This document shows, in pieces, positions 4,416 through 55,480 of a DNA stretch of 64,000 nt. Position numbers and translations under genes: made by a program. Within the stretch, counting starts at the first letter, position 1; each line of letters opens with the position of its first letter. This stretch comes from Bdellovibrionales bacterium (lineage in GTDB: Bacteria; Bdellovibrionota; Bdellovibrionia; Bdellovibrionales; UBA1609): the NCBI GenBank assembly GCA_022450595.1, contig JAKUPT010000004.1, positions 5,019 through 69,018 on the forward strand, given 5' to 3'. A model generated the notes under the pieces. The model ran no database searches. It saw only the letters and a list, made by a program, of their open reading frames with translations, and had not been told where the DNA came from.

Positions 4416-5162
4416 CTATTCACTCTGTTCAAGGTTTTGTTTTTTCTCGATCGCTTTTACTAAGTAAATGGAAAATTCAAAAAGTAGATATAAAGGTATT
4501 ATTAATAAGATTTGGCTGATCAGGTCCGGTGGCGTCACAATGGCTGAGACCAGGGCTATGATCACAATTGTGTAGCGACGACTGGCTTTTAGCATGTCGG
4601 AGCTCACGATTCCAAGGCGGCCAAGCACAGCTAAGATTAAAGGCATTTCAAAGGTTAAACCAAAAACTAATGTGGTGGTTGTGATAAATGAGAGGTATTC
4701 ATCGATTTTTATCATTGGCGTGTCTTTGTCTCCGCCGAAGGTCATTAAAAATTCAAAGGCTAAAGGGTAAACCACAAAATATACAAAGCTCACACCGGTT
4801 AAAAATAAAAACGTTCCAAATAAGATAAAGGCCACACCGTATTTACGCTCCTCTTTATAAAGTGCTGGAGAAATAAAAAGCCACAACTGATGCATCCAAA
4901 AAGGAGATGAAATAATAAAGCCTGAGAAAAGGGCCACTTTAATGTGGGCCATGAATTTATCCATGGGAGCTGTAAAAATTAAACCACCAGAGTCGGTTTT
5001 TAAAAAGGGAGAAATGGGTTGTCTTAAAAGATCAAAGATTTGGTCGGTGTACATCCAACTTATAGCAAAGCCAATGGCAATGAGTATAATGGAGCGGATC
5101 AAACACTTTCTAAGCTCTGTGAGGTGGTCAACAAGGGGTTGCTCTTGATCTTCAGGAGTCAT
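4416..5162 (-). CDS. tatC: twin-arginine translocase subunit TatC
   Basis: 248 aa, six hydrophobic segments. N-terminus ...PLVDHLTELRKCLIRSIILIAIGF matches the TatC HLxELRxRL signature. It overlaps the upstream tatA by 11 nt. Confidence 0.95.
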   Translation of the reverse strand: MTPEDQEQPLVDHLTELRKCLIRSIILIAIGFAISWMYTDQIFDLLRQPISPFLKTDSGGLIFTAPMDKFMAHIKVALFSGFIISSPFWMHQLWLFISPALYKEERKYGVAFILFGTFLFLTGVSFVYFVVYPLAFEFLMTFGGDKDTPMIKIDEYLSFITTTTLVFGLTFEMPLILAVLGRLGIVSSDMLKASRRYTIVIIALVSAIVTPPDLISQILLIIPLYLLFEFSIYLVKAIEKKQNLEQSE

Positions 5163-5445
5163 GAGTTGGCTCCTTTTTGTCCTCTTTTATTTCTTTCTTG
5201 GCATCATCTACAGAGGACTCCACTTGATGAATGTGTTTTTGCAAAGAGTCTTCTGTTTCATAAAAAGCTTTTTGAGTTTCGTTTTTCACGTCTTTAAGAG
5301 AGTCTGTAAGGTCTGAGGTTGCGTTTTTGAACTCATTTAAAGTCCTAGCAATCACCCTTGCCACTTCCGGCAGTTGCTTTGGGCCAATAAAAATCAGGGC
5401 CACCACACCAATTACAATAAGTTCAGGAAATCCTAGGTTAAACAT
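5152..5445 (-). CDS. tatA: twin-arginine translocase TatA/TatB/TatE-family subunit
   Basis: MFNLGFPELIVIGVVALIFIGPKQLPEVARVIARTLNEFKNATSDL is the canonical Tat TM helix plus amphipathic helix (FGPxKLPE...FK). I prefer the ATG at 5445 over the longest-ORF start at 5484, because Tat subunits begin directly at the MF..G motif. Confidence 0.85.
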   Translation of the reverse strand: MFNLGFPELIVIGVVALIFIGPKQLPEVARVIARTLNEFKNATSDLTDSLKDVKNETQKAFYETEDSLQKHIHQVESSVDDAKKEIKEDKKEPTHDS

Positions 5446-5518
5446 GCTGTAATTATAATTGGCTTTAGATAAAAAGCCAATCAATCTCTTTTTTGTGATT
5501 TATTTGGACTAAAGTTTA

Positions 5519-6136
5519 TTAGGCTTTTTTACGTTTTTCGACCTCGGCGTTGAGCAAGCCCTGTTTTTGAAGCTCTTCTTTTGCAAGCTCTGAACCGGTG
5601 AGCATATAGCGCTCATACAATCTTAGTAAGTCTTTGTTTGAGCTCTGTACACTTTCTTGGCTGATGATTGTAAGTACATCTACAAAATCCACAAATTTTT
5701 CACTAAACTCTTCAAAAATGCGAGCGTTTATATCTTCACTTGTAGTGGCAGCCAGTGTTCCGTAAGCCGTGCCCCCCATGTCGATGTAATAGTCTAGGTC
5801 GATAATTTTTCTTTTTAAAGAGTCACTAAAAAAACCACTGATGTATAAGCTTGTGTCTCCAAGTTTTTTTAACATCGAAATTCTTTTTTCTGGAGGTTGT
5901 TCGGCTTGTTGAGCGGTTAAATACATTTCAGCTAAAGTTTGTTTTTTGTGCTTACCGTCTTCTTGATCTTTTTCAAACAGGTTTTCAGTGAACATATAGT
6001 ACTCAAGTAAATCGACTAAGTAATTCACCGCCTGAGGAATAGTTTTTATCCCCCTACGATCAACTGCTGTTTGTACTTTTTCTTGAAAATAGTGTTTTGA
6101 AGAAACCAATAGTGTGTCAAATTCTTTAGCACTCAT
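5519..6136 (-). CDS. hypothetical cytoplasmic, acidic, helical protein (205 aa), first gene of a putative hyp-tatA-tatC operon
   Basis: Long ORF with no competing frame, on the same strand and 73 nt upstream of tatA (34 nt to the longest-ORF tatA start at 5484). It has no signal peptide and no motif I recognise. Confidence 0.6.
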   Translation of the reverse strand: MSAKEFDTLLVSSKHYFQEKVQTAVDRRGIKTIPQAVNYLVDLLEYYMFTENLFEKDQEDGKHKKQTLAEMYLTAQQAEQPPEKRISMLKKLGDTSLYISGFFSDSLKRKIIDLDYYIDMGGTAYGTLAATTSEDINARIFEEFSEKFVDFVDVLTIISQESVQSSNKDLLRLYERYMLTGSELAKEELQKQGLLNAEVEKRKKA

Positions 6137-6446
6137 ACTAGATCAACCCTCCTATTACACATATCGGAGTAATACATAGTATATTTTAACAGACACAAGC
6201 CGGATCTCTGTCAAACATGCATGAATTCTGTATTTTAGGCGAGGAAAATGTCTCAAAACAAAACAATAAGTAAAGCCTGATTAATAAGTGCTATAAGTAT
6301 CTTTTTGATAGCGGCTGAGAGCTGATTAAAAAGGCCATTTATAAAAATACAAATGACCCATGTGAACTTTTTATTTAATACTTTAAATCTCTAGTTTAAG
6401 AGTTTTTAAATCAAAACATAAAGTGTGAGAGGGGCTACTTTTAATT

Positions 6447-7652
6447 TTAAAGTGACACTCTCAACACAGCATAAAAAGCATCATCATCCGCGTATTTGGA
6501 ATTAATGTTTTTTATCGCATTATTGGCATTTTCGTAACGAAGCTGAACATTAATTGAGCTTGAAAAATAATGTTTAATGCCAAAACCATGTCTTTCAATA
6601 TAAGAACCTCTAAATTCTCTGTCTGGTAAAAAACGATCGTACTTATATTGTAATTCTGTCGTTGGATTTACGTTAATTGTAGTTAACCCAAACCAGCCTT
6701 CAGATCTTGATTTTGCAAACTCAGATGGGCTTGATCCTTCGAAGATTTTTGGTAATACTTCGGGATTCCAATATTTAGCCTCAGAATATTCCAATTGAAT
6801 AGAGCCTGTTGTTAAATCAAACAAAATTGGATCTAACAAAACAACAGAATAAACACTTCCAGCTACAGGTTGATCACGGTCTGTTGTAGAGTTTTTATCA
6901 AAAGAATGTTGCGAGTAACTTGCCCCTAAAACAATTGGGAGACTAATTGGAGTCCACCTTGCGTTCAATGACCCTCCCCACTCAATGGCATTGCCTTTAT
7001 CAAAATTTGCTTCGGTGGCTATTCCGTTAATAATCCCTAAATCGTAATGAAGAGTTGAATATGGATTGGCTGAAAACACGACGCCGGTTTCTTGAGTGTA
7101 CCACTCTGATTTTGTCATCATTTTTGTATATGTACGATGCTCATCGGTCATTAATCCAAATGGACGTTGAAATCGTCCAAGCATAATATATTGGGGCTTC
7201 CAAGAGGCTTCATAGTCTTCACGCATTTTAAAACGCAAATAAACATTATGACTATCAATTCCTGTAAAGCCCGCAATATTGTGTGTAGCGACTAATCTTG
7301 TTTCTACATCAGAGGTCTCATCGCCACCAGCCATTGGAGTAAGATTTAAGTTGGCTCCAACATTTAAGGCCATCAATCCCATACCACCACGAGCACTGCT
7401 TGCTTTTTTAGGATGGTAATATATGCCTCTCATGTCGACAGCGAATTTGTCTTGTGTAGCAAATTGATTAAGCTTTAGTCCACGACCACCAAAGGCTTTT
7501 CCTGTAACGGTTTTTAATCCACCGCCAAGTGGACTTACGTGGCACATGGTGCAGCTGTTAGATTTTGCACGAGCGGCATAGTGTGGCCTTGCATAGGTGT
7601 GTATTGAAAACAAAATAAGTAATATTGAATAAATCAATACTGTTTTAAGCAT
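6447..7652 (-). CDS. Cyc2-like fused monoheme c-type cytochrome / outer-membrane beta-barrel porin (architecture-based call)
   Basis: Signal peptide MLKTVLIYSILLILFSIHTYA. A single heme-c motif CTMCH at residues 34-38 (nt 7539-7553) sits in PHYAARAKSNSCTMCHVSPLGGG. About 360 aa follow with amphipathic beta-strand-like alternation, rich in Gly and aromatics, with no further Cys and no TM helices. The C-terminus is ...FYAVLRVSL. SD GGAGAG lies upstream. Confidence 0.6.
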   Translation of the reverse strand: MLKTVLIYSILLILFSIHTYARPHYAARAKSNSCTMCHVSPLGGGLKTVTGKAFGGRGLKLNQFATQDKFAVDMRGIYYHPKKASSARGGMGLMALNVGANLNLTPMAGGDETSDVETRLVATHNIAGFTGIDSHNVYLRFKMREDYEASWKPQYIMLGRFQRPFGLMTDEHRTYTKMMTKSEWYTQETGVVFSANPYSTLHYDLGIINGIATEANFDKGNAIEWGGSLNARWTPISLPIVLGASYSQHSFDKNSTTDRDQPVAGSVYSVVLLDPILFDLTTGSIQLEYSEAKYWNPEVLPKIFEGSSPSEFAKSRSEGWFGLTTINVNPTTELQYKYDRFLPDREFRGSYIERHGFGIKHYFSSSINVQLRYENANNAIKNINSKYADDDAFYAVLRVSL

Positions 7653-7741
7653 GGGGGACTCTCCTTAAAATGTGTACTCACCCCATTTGTATGGTATTTG
7701 ATTTGCAACGTCAAATTGCAGAAGTTGTAAACGACGATATT

Positions 7742-7763
7742 TCCTTCTTAAGTGTAAGAAGGA
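7742..7763 (+). promoter_or_regulatory. perfect 9-bp inverted repeat (hairpin or operator) just 5' of the cytochrome gene RBS
   Basis: TCCTTCTTA (7742-7750) - AGTG - TAAGAAGGA (7755-7763). It lies directly before the SD GGGAAGG and 17 nt before the ATG at 7780. Confidence 0.3.
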
Positions 7764-7779
7764 TAGGGAAGGTCATAAA

Positions 7780-8799
7780 ATGAAACTTAAACGGTTTTTA
7801 GGTATTATATTTCTTTCATTGTTTGGAATAATTTACTTTACAGCCTGTAGCGGAAAAAAGGTTAATTTGCAGCCATCCAGTGAACCTGCAGGTGCACAAA
7901 CTACTGATGGCGAAATCTCCTTTGCTGCTGTGAAACCACTTTTTAACCAATACTGTGTTCAGTGCCATATGAGCAGTGGTATGCCTGATCTGTCTGACTA
8001 TGAAAAGGCCAAGTCTGTCTCAACTAAAATCAAAAACTTTGTATCCTCTGGGTTTATGCCTCAACAGGGTTCTGAAGAAGCTCAAGCCATCTCCGATGAA
8101 GAGCGCAGTAAGATCATTAGCTGGGTCAATGCTGGTGCCCCTCTGGAAGCTGTTCAGGCGGCGCCTGAAGGTTCGGCTGGTATGAGTGCGGCCATTGAGT
8201 TACCACCATTATTGAATACAATTAACCAGTGCATGAACTGCCATGGTAACAATGGAGTGAGTTCTTCAGAAAACAATCCGAATCTTGCAGGACAGGATGA
8301 GCTGTACTTAAAAAAACAACTGCTTCACTTTAAAGATGGTCGTCGCAAAAACCAAACTATGAACGGCATTGCAAAAGATTTATCCAATGCCGAGATTGAT
8401 ATGCTGGCAAGCTTTTTTGGATCGCTTCAACCGAATGATCCGGAACAAGCCTTGGAAGAAACCTATGTGAAAATTTATGAATCTAAAAACATGCCCCAAG
8501 GAACAATGTCTTGTGTGGGCTGCCATGCCAATCCTACGTTTAAGGGCCAACCACTTAAAACTATCACTGATGACAATGGAGCTCCGATACCGGTTCCCGC
8601 TATTAGTGGGCAAAAATCTAGCTACATAGTGAGCCAGTTTCAAAACTACTATAATGGTGACCGTAAAATTGCGATCATGCAACAGATTGCCATTCAACAC
8701 CCCTTCGTGAACAAAGAAACCGGTGAGCTTAATGTGGATGAGATTCAACCGATCGCTGATTTTTTTAGTGAACTTCCAATAATCAATGTGAACGACTAA
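7780..8799 (+). CDS. tri-heme c-type cytochrome lipoprotein (N-terminal PSCyt1-like monoheme domain + c4-like diheme module)
   Basis: Signal/lipobox ...IIYFTAC-SGKK. Three CxxCH motifs: CVQCHM, CMNCHG and CVGCHA. Domains 2-3 carry NLAGQ..Y..KQL..FKDGRR and ISGQKSSYIVSQFQNYYNGDRK, typical of class I / c4 cytochromes. Confidence 0.8.
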   Translation: MKLKRFLGIIFLSLFGIIYFTACSGKKVNLQPSSEPAGAQTTDGEISFAAVKPLFNQYCVQCHMSSGMPDLSDYEKAKSVSTKIKNFVSSGFMPQQGSEEAQAISDEERSKIISWVNAGAPLEAVQAAPEGSAGMSAAIELPPLLNTINQCMNCHGNNGVSSSENNPNLAGQDELYLKKQLLHFKDGRRKNQTMNGIAKDLSNAEIDMLASFFGSLQPNDPEQALEETYVKIYESKNMPQGTMSCVGCHANPTFKGQPLKTITDDNGAPIPVPAISGQKSSYIVSQFQNYYNGDRKIAIMQQIAIQHPFVNKETGELNVDEIQPIADFFSELPIINVND

Positions 8800-11632: not shown

Positions 11633-12781
11633 ATGGACCAATTCGGGATTTACATTCACATTCCCTACTGTTTACAACGATGCATCTACTGCGACTTTAC
11701 AACTTTTGAGTTTAACAAAATTATGCCTCCAGAGCAGTACGTGGAGTATTTAAAAAAAGAGATTCAAACAAGATCAAGGTTTGTTCCCTTTAAATCATTA
11801 ACCAGCATCTATTTTGGAGGTGGAACTCCAAGCTTAATTGATGCTGATCATATTGTATCTATTCTTCAAGAACTTAACAACGCTGGTTTTGAAACTAATG
11901 AAAATACTGAAGTGACTATTGAAATCAATCCCGCCACTGTGAGTAAAGACAACTTACAGACTTATTTACAGGCTGGAATCAATCGCTTTAGTGTTGGAGC
12001 TCAAAGTTTTGATAATGAGCTACTAAAGGCTTGTGGTCGTCGTCACAATGCTGATGACACGGTTAACACATTAGAGCTTTTAAAAGACTATAACTATTCC
12101 TTTGATTTGTTATTTGCTTTACCAAACCAAAGCTTACAACAGCTGCAACGAGACTTAGATCTTGTAAACAAATATAAACCACCTCATTTAAGCGCCTATT
12201 GTTTAACTGTTCCCGAGGGCCATCCTATGTCGTATCATCGCCCAGAGGAAGAAGCCCAAGTTGAGATGTTTCATTTAATTGAGAATGAGCTTAAAAAGTC
12301 TGGACTTTTAAAGTATGAGATTTCTAATTTTGCAAGACCTGGATATGAGTCCAAACACAATATGCTTTATTGGACTTATAATAATTTTTGGGGACTTGGT
12401 TTAAGTGCCCATTCTTTTTTTAATGTTCCTGATTATGGCACTCGTTTTTGGAACCCAAAAAAATTTGACGACTATACAGATCAAATTAACTCAGACCTTC
12501 TGATCAGCCAACTTCCCTCTTCACAAAAAGAACACCTAAAGACCCATGAAGCCCTTACAGACTTTATCCACACCCATCTTCGCACCACTCGTGGTATGAA
12601 TATTGTTCAACTAAAAAATATGTTCCCTGATCAAAACGACCAGGTTATTGGACGACTTAAAAAACTAAAAAAAGATGATCTTATTTGCTCAGATAGCAAT
12701 AATTTTAAGCTCACATCAAAAGGCTTTTTACTCTCAAATTTTGTCTTTGAATATATGGCTTTTTTTGAAGACTGCATTTAA
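11633..12781 (+). CDS. hemW: radical SAM heme chaperone HemW (HemN-like, oxygen-independent coproporphyrinogen oxidase family)
   Basis: YIHIPYCLQRCIYCDF (CxxxCxxC radical-SAM cluster), GGGTPS, 382 aa. Confidence 0.85.
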   Translation: MDQFGIYIHIPYCLQRCIYCDFTTFEFNKIMPPEQYVEYLKKEIQTRSRFVPFKSLTSIYFGGGTPSLIDADHIVSILQELNNAGFETNENTEVTIEINPATVSKDNLQTYLQAGINRFSVGAQSFDNELLKACGRRHNADDTVNTLELLKDYNYSFDLLFALPNQSLQQLQRDLDLVNKYKPPHLSAYCLTVPEGHPMSYHRPEEEAQVEMFHLIENELKKSGLLKYEISNFARPGYESKHNMLYWTYNNFWGLGLSAHSFFNVPDYGTRFWNPKKFDDYTDQINSDLLISQLPSSQKEHLKTHEALTDFIHTHLRTTRGMNIVQLKNMFPDQNDQVIGRLKKLKKDDLICSDSNNFKLTSKGFLLSNFVFEYMAFFEDCI

Positions 12782-51178: not shown

Positions 51179-52834
51179 CTAGTTAAGAACTTCTACTTTT
51201 GATTTTTTTTCTTTCTTATCATTAATAAAATACACCTGCTGAAAATAACCAAACAGAGTACTAACAAACATATATAAGTTTAAACCACTGGGAAGACGCA
51301 CAAAAAATAAGATCATCACAAGTGGCATTAACATCATCATTTTTTTCTGAGCTGGCTGCATGTTTTCATTGCTCGGATTAGACTTCATTTGAAAAAACAT
51401 GACCACACCTGAAAGCACAGGAAGAACATAGAACTGGTCAATTTCACTTAAATCATTGATCCACAAATAAAATGGAGCCTGATACAAGTCGACACTTTTA
51501 CCAAGCACCTGAAATAAAGCAAAAAAGATGGGAAGCTGTAAAAACATTGGTAAACATCCACCTAAGGGGTTTACCTTGTGGTCTTTATAAAGCTTCATAA
51601 CTTCTTGACCACGAAGCTGTGGATCATCTTTATATCGCTCTTGAATGTCTTTCATGAGCGGAGCCAGCTTCGACATTTTTTTCATATTACGATAAGAGGG
51701 AAGTATAATTGGAGTTAATAAAACACGAACCAAAAGTGTTAGCAGTATAATCGCCAAACCCCAGTTTCCTGTTAAGGAGTGGAACATTTGAAGCCCCATA
51801 TGAAGAATTTTTGCAATCCCTCCAAAAAAACCAAAGTCGACAGTTTCTGTAAGCATTGGGTCTACAGTTTCAATAATATCAACGTCTTTTGGGCCAAGAT
51901 AATTAACATATTCTAGAACCATATTGTTTTTTCTAGAAATCATTTTGTAATCTATGATACCAAGAATCGTATTCGTTTCTTTTACTACCATAGGAACAAA
52001 GTCTGGATAAATAGAAGACTGATTTAAAAAAGCAAAGGTAAAGTATTGCGAGCCAATGCTAGCGGCCTCAACGGTAGAAAAGGCTACTTTTTCTACACTG
52101 TCTGGAGGCAGCATTAGGTGGTCTTCTTGTCCAACAATAAAGGTTTCTTGATCGTTTGATTTTTTAACAAATATATCTTGTACATTGTATTGATCCGCAG
52201 AAAACATTCCACCTGAAGACAAGTCTTGTAGATCTTCAACAAGATAAGTTCTAATCCCCTTAAAGCTATCGTTTAAATTTTTAACTTCAATAATGGTTTT
52301 AATGGAATAGTTTTTAGAATTAACTTTTATGGTCTTTATAACCTCAAGGCCAGACTGTTTCGCTGTGCCCTTATAAACACCAGGGTTGGTTTCTTTGATA
52401 TCAAAATAAAGAGGGCTCTTAGAATCAATAAGAGCTGTTTCTAAGGGTAAGTACTCTTTTTTGGATCCAATTTTTTTGTTTTCTTTTTTTCTGTTAAAGT
52501 GATCGTGCAGTTGATAGTCAGTAACACCCATTCCTTTGGAATGAATTTTAAATTCTACTTTTTCATCTGAATATTGAATCTGTTGATCTAAAACCTTAAC
52601 AGGAGCTTGTTTTTTTGCCGTTTTAATTTCAGCGACACCATCGGGCTCTACCGCGGACGTTTCTTGTTGTGTTTTTTGTTCATTTTGACCCTGAACAACC
52701 TCTTGCTTTTTTGTTTCATTGAAGTGCTCTGGATATCTTTTTTGCATCCAATATGACCACCCCATAAAAATTAATGCTGAAAAGGCGATAGCTAATAGAG
52801 TTTTTGAGTCCATAAAGTTTTGGTTGTTATTCAT
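51179..52834 (-). CDS. yidC: membrane protein insertase YidC
   Basis: 551 aa with an N-terminal TM helix, a large periplasmic domain, and the C-terminal 5-TM core ...GNWGLAIILLTLLVRVLLTPI...KVNPLGGCLPMFLQLPIFFALF. Confidence 0.95.
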   Translation of the reverse strand: MNNNQNFMDSKTLLAIAFSALIFMGWSYWMQKRYPEHFNETKKQEVVQGQNEQKTQQETSAVEPDGVAEIKTAKKQAPVKVLDQQIQYSDEKVEFKIHSKGMGVTDYQLHDHFNRKKENKKIGSKKEYLPLETALIDSKSPLYFDIKETNPGVYKGTAKQSGLEVIKTIKVNSKNYSIKTIIEVKNLNDSFKGIRTYLVEDLQDLSSGGMFSADQYNVQDIFVKKSNDQETFIVGQEDHLMLPPDSVEKVAFSTVEAASIGSQYFTFAFLNQSSIYPDFVPMVVKETNTILGIIDYKMISRKNNMVLEYVNYLGPKDVDIIETVDPMLTETVDFGFFGGIAKILHMGLQMFHSLTGNWGLAIILLTLLVRVLLTPIILPSYRNMKKMSKLAPLMKDIQERYKDDPQLRGQEVMKLYKDHKVNPLGGCLPMFLQLPIFFALFQVLGKSVDLYQAPFYLWINDLSEIDQFYVLPVLSGVVMFFQMKSNPSNENMQPAQKKMMMLMPLVMILFFVRLPSGLNLYMFVSTLFGYFQQVYFINDKKEKKSKVEVLN

Positions 52835-52835
52835 T

Positions 52836-53123
52836 TTATGAGCGTCCTTTTAAAGTTTTTGATTGAGGAACAGGGTCGTAGCCAAAAGGTCCAAGAGGAT
52901 GACATTTTAATAATCGCTTTAAAGTGAGATAAAAAGCCTTGTGACAAGGAAAAGCTCTAAAGCTTTCTACAGCGTAATGAGAACAGGTTGGCGAAAAGCG
53001 ACAGCTTCTACCAATATAGGGCGACAATAATAACTGATAAATTTTAATCAACGAAATAGCCACGAAACGAAGCACATCATTTATGGTATTTATTAATCCT
53101 TTTGCAGGCTTTCTCCAGCTCAT
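52836..53123 (-). CDS. yidD: membrane protein insertion efficiency factor YidD
   Basis: IKIYQLLLSPYIGRSCRFSPTCSHYAVESF...LKRLLKCHPLGPFGYDPVP (YidD signature). The longest ORF overlaps rnpA by 47 nt. An alternative GTG start at 53075 lies immediately after the rnpA stop. Confidence 0.85.
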   Translation of the reverse strand: MSWRKPAKGLINTINDVLRFVAISLIKIYQLLLSPYIGRSCRFSPTCSHYAVESFRAFPCHKAFYLTLKRLLKCHPLGPFGYDPVPQSKTLKGRS

Positions 53124-53445
53124 TTTTCAACTCTTCAAAACTCAAGTTTTTGTAAAGCCCCGGATCTCTTTTTTTAAAAACAAAATTTACATCTACCGGG
53201 GGAAGACTTTTGCAGACTTCGCTTTTGTTGAAAACTTCTCTGCAAAGTCTTTTTACTCTGTTTCTTACTACCGCGTTTCCCACATACTTGGGAACTGTAA
53301 GGCCGTACCTATAGCTCTCCGATTTGTTGTTTTTAAAATTAACAACAATCCATGAGTTTGGATAAACTCGACGGCCCGCTTTATATAAATTCTTGTAATC
53401 TTCTGTTTTTGTTAAACGACAGGATTTTTTATTTTCCGCCAACAT
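53077..53445 (-). CDS. rnpA: ribonuclease P protein component
   Basis: 122 aa, basic, ...[23 protein letters not shown] (the RNR box). It occupies the canonical position after rpmH. Confidence 0.9.
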
Positions 53446-53578
53446 TCACTGTAAGTCTCTTACGACCCTTTGCTCTGCGTCTTGAAAGCACCTGTTGACC
53501 ATCTTTTGTTGCCATACGGCTTCTAAATCCATGACTTGTTTTACGTTTTTTACGACTAGGCTGATATGTCCTTTTCAT
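53429..53578 (-). CDS. rpmH: 50S ribosomal protein L34
   Basis: Not in the ORF track (49 aa). My manual translation is [53 protein letters not shown] lies 6 nt upstream of the ATG at 53578. The 3' end overlaps the rnpA start by 17 nt. Confidence 0.9.
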
Positions 53579-53729
53579 TTTCCACTCCGCTTTATATATT
53601 ACGACAAATATTACGTCTTTTTATCCAGACTAGCTTTTGAGGGCCAAATCTGATGCGCCATAGAACCACAACATTTTATGGTCGTCAAGTTGTTGAATCT
53701 TTTAATCGACCATGATAATCCATTTCCAG

Positions 53730-53767
53730 TTATCCACATTTACACTATGTAAATGATGCAATAATAA
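53730..53767 (+). promoter_or_regulatory. DnaA box abutting a candidate dnaA promoter
   Basis: Perfect TTATCCACA (53730-53738) is followed directly by TTTACA (53739-53744) - 17 nt - TAATAA (53762-53767), about 50 nt upstream of the dnaA GTG. The promoter call rests on resemblance only. Confidence 0.4.
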
Positions 53768-53817
53768 GCAAACAAATCAATTATAGCTTAAGTTTTGAGC
53801 GAAATGGGGATGAGCTT

Positions 53818-55254
53818 GTGAGTAATGCTCAAGAGTTTTGGTCGCAGATCAAGTCTAATTTAAAAGACAAGAATTTACACAATAAACCACTACAAATGTG
53901 GTTTGAACCCACCACTTTATTGTCTGTAGAAAATACTGAAAGTGGATCTATGAACTTCAAGCTTGGTGTGCCTACTGAGCTTCATAAGTATTGGATTTCA
54001 CAGAACTTATTGGATAATATCTGTGGGGAAATCTCAGCGATTTTTGAAAGCCCCTTTAATATTGAGTTATTTGTGACAGGCGACACTCCTGACATCAGTC
54101 AGTACACCACTGAACCGCCATCAGACCTTTTTGAAGCGGCTAAAAAAACCCACAGCCATAATCCAAGTCATGCCAACGCCTTTGAAACGGCAAAGCAAGT
54201 TTATGAAACAGAGGCAAAAGTGGTTGAGGGCCTGAATCAAGACTATCAATTTTCAAGTTTTGTTGTGGGCAGAAACAATGAGTTTGCTCATGCTGCAAGT
54301 TTTAGTATTGCTGAAAACCCAGGGGTTGAAAACTACAACCCTCTTTTTATATGTGGACCCACTGGTATGGGTAAAACCCACTTATTACATGCGGTTGGAA
54401 ACCATATTGCTCACTCACATCCGAGATTAAAAATTTGTTATGTGTCTGCTGAGCGCTTTTTAAATGAATGTATTTCTTCAATCCGGCGTTCTGAAATGGA
54501 CAAGTTTCGCCTGCGCTTTCGTGAACAGTGTGATGTCTTGCTAATGGACGATATTCAGATCTTAGGACGCGGTGAAGCTGTTCAAGAAGAGTTTTTTCAT
54601 ACCCTGAATGACTTCTTTGAAAAAGGCCAACAGGTAGTTGTGGCCAGTGATCGCATGCCTAAAGACATTAAGGGTCTTGAAGACAGAATAAGAACGCGGC
54701 TTGAGTGGGGCTTAATTGCTGATATTCAAATGCCTGATATTGAAACTCGAGTGGCTATTTTAAAGTATAAAGCGGAAAAGCGTAATATTAGGCTTCCCAA
54801 TGAGGTGGTAAATTACATTGCCCGGATTTCTAAAAGATCTATTCGTGAATTAGAGGGAAATTTAAACAAAGTTAAGATGTTTTCTGAGCTTCAGGGTTTA
54901 GACATTTCTATGGACCTTACAAAAAAGGTTCTTAACAACCATGATGACACTACAAGTATCACTGTTGATGAGATTATGAAGCTGGCAGCCCAACATTATA
55001 ATGTGCGTGTGACCGACTTAAAATCCAGAAATAGAACCAAACCTCTTGTCACTGCGCGACAAGTTTCAATGTATTTAGTAAAAAAACACCTAGATAAATC
55101 CCTTGTAGATATAGGTAGAGCCTTTGGCGGCAAAGACCATACCACTGTCATGAGTGCGCTGCGTAGAATACAAGATCAACAGACAAAAAATTTAGATTTA
55201 AAGAGAGATATTGAGGAGTTAGAAGGACGAATCCACAACATCACAGGGGTGTGA
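53818..55254 (+). CDS. dnaA: chromosomal replication initiator protein DnaA
   Basis: NPLFICGPTGMGKTHLLHAVGN (Walker A), LLMDDIQ, and the domain IV sequence ...RQVSMYLVKKHLDKSLVDIGRAFGGKDHTTVMSALRRI. GTG start with GGGGA upstream. Confidence 0.97.
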   Translation: MSNAQEFWSQIKSNLKDKNLHNKPLQMWFEPTTLLSVENTESGSMNFKLGVPTELHKYWISQNLLDNICGEISAIFESPFNIELFVTGDTPDISQYTTEPPSDLFEAAKKTHSHNPSHANAFETAKQVYETEAKVVEGLNQDYQFSSFVVGRNNEFAHAASFSIAENPGVENYNPLFICGPTGMGKTHLLHAVGNHIAHSHPRLKICYVSAERFLNECISSIRRSEMDKFRLRFREQCDVLLMDDIQILGRGEAVQEEFFHTLNDFFEKGQQVVVASDRMPKDIKGLEDRIRTRLEWGLIADIQMPDIETRVAILKYKAEKRNIRLPNEVVNYIARISKRSIRELEGNLNKVKMFSELQGLDISMDLTKKVLNNHDDTTSITVDEIMKLAAQHYNVRVTDLKSRNRTKPLVTARQVSMYLVKKHLDKSLVDIGRAFGGKDHTTVMSALRRIQDQQTKNLDLKRDIEELEGRIHNITGV

Positions 55255-55480
55255 ATTAGTGATGTGGATAACCACGTGGAAAAAAATGTGTTTAAGTTGG
55301 GGACACTGAGATATCAACAATTTGCGATTTTTTATGTACACAGTCGTCCCACAAGTTTTCCACATGGATTAAAAAGTAAAATCAATGACTTAGATAGTAA
55401 ATTGAGATAATAACACCCCTACTACTATTACTATATTTAATTATATATAAATTAGTATTTTATAGGGCCTTGGAGGGCAC
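55255..55480. other. candidate chromosomal origin of replication (oriC) in the dnaA-dnaN intergenic region
   Basis: DnaA boxes: TGTGGATAA (55263-55271, perfect, reverse), CGTGGAAAA (55275-55283), TTATGTACA (55332-55340), TTTTCCACA (55356-55364). They are followed by an extremely AT-rich stretch, CTACTACTATTACTATATTTAATTATATATAAATTAGTATTTTATAG (~55420-55466), as a possible unwinding element. Confidence 0.65.

Follow-up and report, generated by a model that had tools for sequence, protein, structure and literature searches.

A divergent gene pair of a Bdellovibrionales bacterium encodes a predicted cytochrome-porin on a remote sister branch of Cyc2 and a tri-heme lipoprotein cytochrome c

Analysis of a 64-kb window (the whole stretch of DNA studied here) from a Bdellovibrionales metagenome-assembled genome (MAG) revealed two divergent genes encoding a putative cytochrome-porin (gene 1) and a tri-heme lipoprotein cytochrome c (gene 2). 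The two open reading frames (ORFs) are positioned at 6447-7652 on the minus strand and 7780-8799 on the plus strand, 127 bp apart, exactly where an earlier reading of the sequence, referred to here as the original prediction, had placed them. Their products are the only heme-c proteins encoded in the 64 kb. The original prediction regarded gene 1 as Cyc2-like and the pair as a candidate outer membrane electron conduit. The features of gene 1 are the following:

6447..7652, minus strand: cytochrome-porin gene, 401 aa (ORF; 100% identical to NCBI MK008_00740)
7590..7652, minus strand: predicted signal peptide, aa 1-21 (MLKTVLIYSILLILFSIHTYA), from the translation and alignments, with the cleavage site inferred from sequence
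7539..7553, minus strand: heme-c attachment motif CTMCH, aa 34-38, conserved in 142 sequences
6453..7445, minus strand: predicted 16-strand beta-barrel porin domain, aa 70-400 (DSSP on the AlphaFold2 model, Foldseek, hhalign)
7128..7178, minus strand: family-specific motif GRFQRPFGLMTDEHRTY, aa 159-175, identified by conservation, between strands 5 and 6 at the position of porin loop L3
7371..7373, minus strand: Met94 in strand 2, 97% conserved and kept in the sister group described below

The N terminus of the gene 1 product, MLKTVLIYSILLILFSIHTYA followed by RPHY, contains a signal-peptide-like h-region and a T-x-A cleavage site (T-Y-A, cleaved before R). Predicted cleavage gives a mature start at R22-P23, and canonical Cyc2 likewise shows A-x-P after the cleavage site. 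The mature protein has about 380 residues and begins with a heme peptide of about 48 residues, which carries one heme-c attachment site and follows the pattern A21-R-P-x-Y-A...CxxCH-x-x-P-x-GGG-x-[RK]. The claims of the original prediction for this protein held up: a hydrophobic N terminus and a cleavage-type site are evident and are preserved in the family alignment, CTMCH is the sole CxxCH of a protein with only two Cys, and the barrel, previously only inferred, appeared with high confidence in a structural model. The AlphaFold2 model, generated from a 46-sequence alignment, had a mean predicted local distance difference test score (pLDDT) of 87.2 and a predicted template modeling score of 0.85. 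DSSP assigned 16 beta-strands to residues 70-400 of the model, preceded by a short, partly helical heme-binding segment (residues 31-70 modeled at pLDDT 84-90). The top Foldseek matches in the Protein Data Bank (PDB) were solely 16-strand porins, namely, VhChiP, BpsOmp38, PorB, and OmpF (E 6e-12 to 1e-8), and the lower-ranked matches within this range included OprO (4rjw) and OprP (2o4v), which are the structural neighbors reported for Cyc2 (Keffer et al. 2021, PMC8406198). Sequence searches of Pfam, NCBIfam, and PDB with the gene 1 protein returned no match, and a Pfam scan of 46 family members gave only subthreshold hits to generic outer membrane proteins (best E 0.003, a generic barrel). 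A solved Cyc2-type structure was not detectable by sequence in PDB. These results show that gene 1 encodes a secreted protein in which a heme attachment site is fused to a predicted 16-strand porin.

Gene 2 and its heme sites are located as follows:

7780..8799, plus strand: tri-heme lipoprotein cytochrome c gene, 339 aa (ORF, Pfam and PDB matches)
7837..7848, plus strand: lipobox FTAC, aa 20-23, with lipidated Cys23 conserved in at least 85% of 29 tri-heme homologues
7954..7968, plus strand: heme 1, CVQCH, aa 59-63, conserved; candidate ligand M93 at nt 8056-8058
8230..8244, plus strand: heme 2, CMNCH, aa 151-155, conserved; candidate ligand M194 at nt 8359-8361
8512..8526, plus strand: heme 3, CVGCH, aa 245-249, conserved; candidate ligand M300 at nt 8677-8679

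Gene 2 had been described as a lipoprotein with three CxxCH motifs, and the lipobox together with the motifs at aa 59, 151, and 245 agrees with this description. Of the two modules proposed for it, the c4-like diheme module was borne out by two-domain alignments of aa 146-304 with solved c4 cytochromes (8uf3, E 3e-20; 1h1o, E 1e-16), while the label PSCyt1-like for the first domain was not, Pfam assigning aa 50-116 to Cytochrome_CBB3, a class-I mono-heme domain. PDB entry 1H1O is Cyc1 of Acidithiobacillus ferrooxidans, the partner of Cyc2. As expected of a c4 cytochrome, the module consists of two class-I domains, each with a conserved CxxCH and Met (C151/H155-M194 and C245/H249-M300). Among the 29 tri-heme homologues, the lipoprotein Cys, the three CxxCH motifs, and M93, M194, and M300 are each at least 85% conserved. 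The three conserved candidate Met ligands point to a membrane-tethered chain of His/Met hemes, a type that is usually high-potential. The gene 2 product thus shares with A. ferrooxidans Cyc1 and the c4 cytochromes (1H1O, 8UF3, 1ETP) the two-domain class-I diheme module and an adjoining Cyc2-type gene; unlike these, it carries three hemes, owing to a further mono-heme class-I domain at the N terminus, and has a lipoprotein anchor with a linker of about 35 residues. Two other assignments of the gene 2 product were rejected: CcoP, for which it scored 37.3 bits against the TIGR00782 cutoff of 179.95, and PdsA, for which it scored 49 bits against a cutoff of 330. No cco genes were found in the neighborhood of the pair.

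A word-index search identified 46 homologues of gene 1 (alignment A1), and phmmer, run exhaustively against 1.84 billion representative proteins, identified only 183 clusters at E <= 1e-3, a compact family. The latter search recovered the family and a few intermediates and did not reach canonical Cyc2. The 142 full-length members are 30 to 40% identical to the window protein. All of them have C34, C37, and H38 (100% conservation), and the family sequences without a CxxCH are all N-terminally truncated fragments. CTMCH is therefore not a chance feature, and the original proposal that its conservation be checked led to an invariant motif. The consensus of the heme region is A-R-P-E-Y-A-x-[RKQ]-x5-CxxCH-x-x-P-x-G-G-G-x-R-N. 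Conservation extends into the barrel, comprising M94 (97%), G159, P164-F165-G166, D170-E171-H172-R173-T174-Y175, H202, D204, N230, R232, E288, R354, and R372. In the motif GRFQRPFGLMTDEHRTY, G159 and G166 are 100% conserved, H172 is 99% conserved, and D170 and E171 are 94% conserved. Judged by this conservation, the loop containing D170, E171, H172, and R173 may supply a distal heme ligand or a metal-binding site, and Met94 is a candidate alternative sixth heme ligand.

A scan of one genome per GTDB species with the single peptide pattern [TDN]DEHRTY[VTI][RK], which hence is not exhaustive, detected 48 loci, all in Bdellovibrionota MAGs. The hosts belong to the Bdellovibrionaceae, Pseudobdellovibrionaceae, Bacteriovoracaceae, Halobacteriovoraceae, and Oligoflexia. 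Two individual genomes show peculiarities. On a complete MAG chromosome (OZ251471.1, L160:5914-7211), the family gene is frameshifted after '...SIVNGEQTQG' and resumes in another frame, which represents either a pseudogene or a long-read indel error. The Halobacteriovoraceae MAG SI075_bin7 carries two cytochrome-porin paralogues on separate contigs (L150 and L168).

Cyc2 has been defined by a signal peptide, one CXXCH preceded by AxPxFAR[Q/K][T/Y] and followed by PxL, and a 16-strand porin of at least 365 aa, and the recognized Cyc2 clusters are merely 17 to 23% identical to each other (Keffer et al., PMC8406198). For comparison with the family, a scan of metagenome contigs with a degenerate DNA motif supplied 66 full-length, motif-defined canonical Cyc2 proteins, which have the consensus A[IV]P[AS]FAR[QK][TY]xxxCxxCHxxxPxLxxFGxxFKxxGY. 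A tblastn search of plasmids and chromids for Cyc2-like genes gave one spurious Klebsiella match (E = 3). Alignment of the profile of the 142 family sequences with that of the 66 canonical proteins by hhalign gave a probability of 98.2% and an E value of 3e-14 over 334 columns covering the heme peptide and the barrel. The heme peptide alone matched at 97% (E 8e-11) and the barrel alone at 72% (E 3e-5), and mismatched halves, used as a control, gave 0.1 to 0.2%. In a calibration, the canonical FARK and FARQ subgroups matched each other at E 2e-36. The difference between 3e-14 and 2e-36 places the family well outside the canonical diversity sampled. Significant similarity to a characterized non-heme porin family, which would have spoken against the original prediction, was not found, and the closest profile-level relative among known proteins is canonical Cyc2.

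The reference proteins for this comparison are A. ferrooxidans Cyc2, Mariprofundus PV-1 Cyc2, and Leptospirillum Cyt572 (McAllister 2020, Keffer 2021). Like these, the window protein has a putative signal peptide, a single N-terminal CxxCH (CTMCH, aa 34-38) about 12 residues past the cleavage site, a predicted 16-strand porin domain, a length of about 400 aa (401 aa), an A-x-P-x-[F/Y]-A core upstream of the heme, and an adjacent periplasmic class-I or c4 cytochrome. Of the AxPxFAR motif, it retains A-x-P-x-aromatic-A, with the spacing to the Cys one residue longer. The Pro after CxxCH sits one residue nearer to the heme motif than in Cyc2, and an invariant GGG replaces x-L-N-x-F-G. At the level of the family, the upstream segment reads P-[EQH]-Y-A-x-[RKQ], the Cys comes one residue later than in canonical Cyc2, P-x-GGG-x-RN is found instead of PxL and FGxxFKxxGY, and the proteins are shorter (median, 403 aa versus 467 aa). 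Unlike canonical Cyc2, the family conserves M94 and PFGxxTDEHRTY in the barrel, the GRFQRPFGLMTDEHRTY motif being without a canonical counterpart, and its hosts are Bdellovibrionota MAGs, not known iron oxidizers. Membership of the window protein in the Cyc2 superfamily, with the architecture of Cyc2, is very likely from these sequence comparisons. By the same comparisons, it belongs to a remote sister clade and is not Cyc2 sensu stricto.

The weakest phmmer matches carried 'LPRFAAR...CxxCHVNPTGGG', and a profile search seeded by them revealed about 90 further proteins. These derive from uncultured Bacteroidota, TA06, Poribacteria, and 'Deltaproteobacteria' MAGs and from the cultured Bradymonadales species Persicimonas caeni. 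This sister group matched the Bdellovibrionota family in hhalign at 100% (E 2e-50; barrel alone, 99.9%) and canonical Cyc2 at 99.4% (E 3e-21; barrel alone, 95.4%). Its upstream motif, ALPRFA[AS]RTGxxC, has the proline-to-cysteine spacing of canonical Cyc2, while its downstream segment, CHVNPTGGGMRN, and its loop motif, GRFxPxYGLRxDDH, are of the Bdellovibrionota-family type. The Cyc2-like spacing, the family-type motifs, and the matches in both directions indicate that the sister group is intermediate. It shares with the family CH-x-x-P-x-GGG-x-R-N, the L3 motif GRFxPx[FY]G...[DE][DE]H, the strand-2 Met, and a neighboring cytochrome c; its members are the nearest relatives of the family, yet they belong to other phyla. 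By its signature, the window protein is placed on a distinct 'GGG-type' branch that is missed by the published motif filter and by a surrogate canonical hidden Markov model (HMM).

Each of the four sister-group loci inspected has a cytochrome c gene directly downstream of that for the cytochrome-porin. In this group, the partner is in most cases a small cytochrome of the PSCyt1 or diheme type, in contrast to the tri-heme lipoprotein of the family. In P. caeni (CP042468.1, L174:7328-10071), genes for a cupredoxin (PF00127), a Cyc2-like porin, and a multidomain cytochrome c follow each other on the plus strand. The three protein types are the same as those of cyc2, cyc1, and rus in the rus operon of A. 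ferrooxidans. At a second sister locus (L177:2901-5002), DUF3570 and DUF4266 genes are positioned directly upstream of the cytochrome-porin gene, and the gene for the diheme cytochrome is followed by two ORFs of about 400 aa without annotation; a larger operon may be present there. In a sister subclade (P0237, P0239, P0240, P0241, P0250, and P0253), a His- and acid-rich stretch (for example, YGDHMHGHEEDSMTMDCSACHVNPTGGGMR) replaces the PRFA motif just before the heme. From its composition, this stretch resembles a segment that binds metal beside the heme, and it may have a bearing on the substrate.

The genomic neighborhood of the Bdellovibrionota family was analyzed in a sample of 54 loci, of which 41 had at least 1 kb of sequence on both sides and served as a flank-controlled subset. 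Class-I cytochrome c was the only recurrent neighbor, represented by 77 ORFs at 46 of the 54 loci with a median distance of 72 bp, and every other neighboring family occurred at no more than 5 loci. In the flank-controlled subset, 39 of the 41 loci had an ORF with a CxxCH within 1 kb; the corresponding values were 3.1% for the background of more distant ORFs and 63% for canonical Cyc2 loci. A tri-heme homologue adjoins the cytochrome-porin gene at about 28 of the 54 loci, and many loci also carry a mono-heme cytochrome of about 100 aa. Divergent, upstream-tandem, and downstream-tandem forms of the pairing all exist, and this variety speaks for selection acting on the pairing as such. The wider context is occasionally informative and supports a respiratory role. 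The locus of homologue P0017 (L001:1-10963) encodes caa3-type COX1/COX2, SCO1, three cytochromes c, and ResB/CcsA, and that of homologue P0038 (L004:1-11009) encodes FeoAB, a multicopper oxidase of about 800 aa, a cytochrome c, and ResB/CcsA. ResA-like thioredoxins at 5 loci, together with the cytochrome c and cupredoxin neighbors in the sister group, fit in with such a role. The original prediction had named a partner serving only an oxidase as a finding that would undo it; the partner is c4-like yet coupled to the cytochrome-porin gene and not to an oxidase operon. With this, every refuting finding that the original prediction listed had been looked for, and each outcome was in its favor.

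Taken together, these data make it likely that the cytochrome-porin functions with its neighboring cytochrome as an electron conduit across the outer membrane, and it is on balance probable that the two genes of the window form such a conduit with two components of the Cyc2/Cyc1 type. Electron uptake, which we infer solely from the His/Met ligation of the partner hemes, is the most likely direction. By analogy with Cyc2, Fe(II) may be the physiological substrate, with a chance that we would put at somewhat less than even. In the proposed mechanism, the heme peptide would be located in the periplasmic half of the barrel lumen or at its periplasmic mouth, where the heme would meet the loop between strands 5 and 6, which occupies the L3 position of the porin constriction loop. 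H172 or M94 would provide the sixth heme ligand, and D170, E171, and R173 would shape the substrate site. A small soluble one-electron reductant, most likely Fe2+ by homology and analogy with Cyc2, would enter the pore and reduce the porin heme. The electron would then be handed to the tri-heme cytochrome, anchored to the membrane in the periplasm, and by it to a terminal oxidase. If the host is a heterotroph or a predator, the benefit would be additional respiratory energy or detoxification of Fe(II), and not autotrophic growth.

The concept of hemes moving electrons through an outer membrane barrel is common to the proposed conduit and to MtrAB, MtoAB, and PioAB. In those systems, a separate heme-free porin of about 26 strands sheathes a decaheme cytochrome, whereas the present protein combines a single heme and a predicted 16-strand barrel in one chain. 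The window pair does not correspond to the MtrB/PioB/MtoB type, having 16 predicted strands with a heme of their own and a partner with three class-I hemes, not ten. The Pfam and NCBIfam searches gave no significant match to Mtr families.

Several observations weigh against a Cyc2/Cyc1-type conduit that takes up electrons from Fe(II). The AxPxFAR[Q/K][T/Y] motif is absent, the window protein having A-R-P-H-Y-A-A-R-A and P.FAR[QK][TY] occurring in 0 of 188 family sequences, and PxL is absent as well, the corresponding segment being CH-V-S-P-L-G-G-G. In a search with a surrogate HMM built from the 66 canonical proteins, as distinct from the FeGenie models, the window protein scored 2.6 bits and the best family member 30.7 bits. 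The best E value in blastp against canonical Cyc2 was 0.04. Of the original Cyc2 reading, homology and architecture thus stood, and the published Cyc2 motifs and recognition by a canonical HMM did not. The failed motif definition and the score of 2.6 bits mean that function is not simply transferable from Cyc2. Canonical Cyc2 conserves almost nothing beyond the heme peptide, whereas the family keeps many barrel residues (M94, DEHRTY, H202, D204, N230, R232, and E288, among others), which suggests a different or more specific active site. Iron-related neighbors (Feo and the multicopper oxidase) were present at one locus only, as were oxidase genes. None of the 48 loci came from an isolate, and no cultured Bdellovibrionota genome was matched in the single-pattern scan. 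The MAG names, taken alone, suggest varied habitats (marine water column, wastewater, groundwater, and lakes), not only iron-rich ones. Finally, the derivation of the direction solely from the ligation of the partner hemes is a limit that also counts here.

A wider reading takes the Bdellovibrionota family and the sister group (Bacteroidota, Bradymonadales, TA06, and Poribacteria) as a deep, unrecognized branch of the Cyc2 superfamily with an active site of its own, formed by the lumen Met/His and the acidic D-E-H-R loop, and perhaps with a substrate other than that of Cyc2. In predatory lineages (Bdellovibrionota and Bradymonadales), it could serve a lithoheterotrophic or prey-linked electron route across the outer membrane, and iron-cycling marker surveys based on motif filters or FeGenie-type HMMs would systematically miss it. 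We regard this full combination as less likely than not.

Less probable, and on the whole unlikely, is that the same anatomy serves another extracellular substrate (Mn(II), sulfur or iodine in reduced form, humics or quinones, or redox-active metabolites that prey release, for example) or that it exports electrons in reductive extracellular electron transfer. Conservation of barrel and lumen residues that are absent from canonical Cyc2, a divergence from canonical Cyc2 far above that between the canonical subgroups, and MAG names without a specific pointer to iron-rich habitats would all fit such a role. Against it, the Met ligands of the partner are typical of high-potential carriers feeding oxidases and not of bis-His export multihemes, and the oxidase, cupredoxin, and Feo neighbors, where found, fit uptake. 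Moreover, the sole experimentally characterized homologues are Fe(II) oxidases (PMC8406198).

Alternatively, the heme might be protective or nutritional, the protein being an outer membrane peroxidase or a porin that detoxifies reactive oxygen species and is fed by cytochrome c, or a component of redox-assisted iron uptake. The invariant His-Arg with its acidic neighbors (D170, E171, H172, and R173) may resemble a distal acid-base pocket, and class-I cytochromes c, as found next to the family genes, normally donate electrons to the diheme peroxidases of bacteria. ResA-like thioredoxins are encoded at 5 loci and could be counted in favor of a protective role, although a part in the maturation of cytochrome c is the simpler explanation for their genes, and FeoAB adjoins one homologue, which would fit iron uptake. 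Such a role is nevertheless improbable. The protein has no similarity to any peroxidase family, its homology is to an electron-transfer protein, Feo linkage is limited to a single locus, and no regulator or stress gene was recurrent near the cytochrome-porin gene at the 54 loci.

An ordinary diffusion porin with a chance CxxCH, next to a c4 donor of a cbb3 or aa3 oxidase, would account for the general-porin-like barrel and the standard c4 fold of the partner, yet a heme-free porin is effectively refuted by the invariance of CxxCH and its flanks over the 142 sequences and by the homology of the heme peptide to that of Cyc2, and this explanation can be dismissed all the more because c-type cytochromes adjoin 95% of the loci against a background of 3%, because this adjacency survives rearrangement, and because the partner is far below the CcoP cutoff (37 bits versus 180).

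Further features of the window were located around the pair:

6332..6359, minus strand: terminator-like hairpin some 90 bp beyond the 3' end of the cytochrome-porin gene (consensus scan only)
7653..7779, no strand assigned: divergent intergenic region of 127 bp, presumed to carry both promoters

The hairpin 3' of the cytochrome-porin gene suggests a monocistronic transcript. A promoter scan of the 127-bp region found 9 sites compared to 8.5 expected in the shuffled background, and no Fur-box-like palindrome was obvious in it when judged by eye only. The space between the cytochrome-porin gene and tatA/B-tatC (4416-5484) contains an ORF of 205 aa (5519-6136, minus strand). Its product lacks a heme motif and gave no significant match in Pfam or NCBIfam, and no matching family was recurrent at other cytochrome-porin loci. 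About 3 kb from the pair, the ORF at 11633-12781 (plus strand) encodes a HemN/HemW-like radical S-adenosylmethionine protein, a possible heme chaperone judged by its sequence. This gene is not adjacent in other loci, and its proximity is therefore probably coincidental. The window covers a chromosomal origin region with dnaA-dnaN-recF-gyrBA, parAB, the atp operon, and nuo genes. The cumulative GC skew has its minimum at about 52-54 kb (window 52000-55300), between an rnpA/yidC block and a dnaA-like ORF (53818-55254), which we take to be such from their N-terminal sequences. A skew minimum at this position fits oriC and agrees with the earlier remark that the region is origin-proximal.

Cyc2 is the main marker gene for inferring microbial Fe(II) oxidation from genomes and metagenomes. 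The branch described here, with 183 clusters and about 90 further sequences, fails the motif filter and HMM detection, and surveys therefore probably undercount such redox proteins; the published Cyc2 screening criteria (PMC8406198) would have excluded the GGG-type branch. No specific link between Bradymonadales or predatory bacteria and Cyc2 or cytochrome-porins was found in the literature, and just survey-level mentions of 'EET' (extracellular electron transfer) or 'iron oxidation' genes exist for some Bdellovibrionia/Bdellovibrionota MAGs. The novelty lies in a deeply placed sister branch of Cyc2 that has a signature and a range of hosts of its own, and not in a new class of mechanism. Its many conserved lumen residues offer more mechanistic handles on oxidation by single-heme porins than canonical Cyc2 does, and the cultured sister-group carrier P. 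caeni, with its cupredoxin-porin-cytochrome operon, makes the function directly testable. The hosts are unexpected, since Bdellovibrionota and Bradymonadales are known as predators or heterotrophs, and extracellular electron uptake is outside their accepted physiology. Some bacteria of predator lineages probably move electrons across the outer membrane by a route that current gene screens miss.

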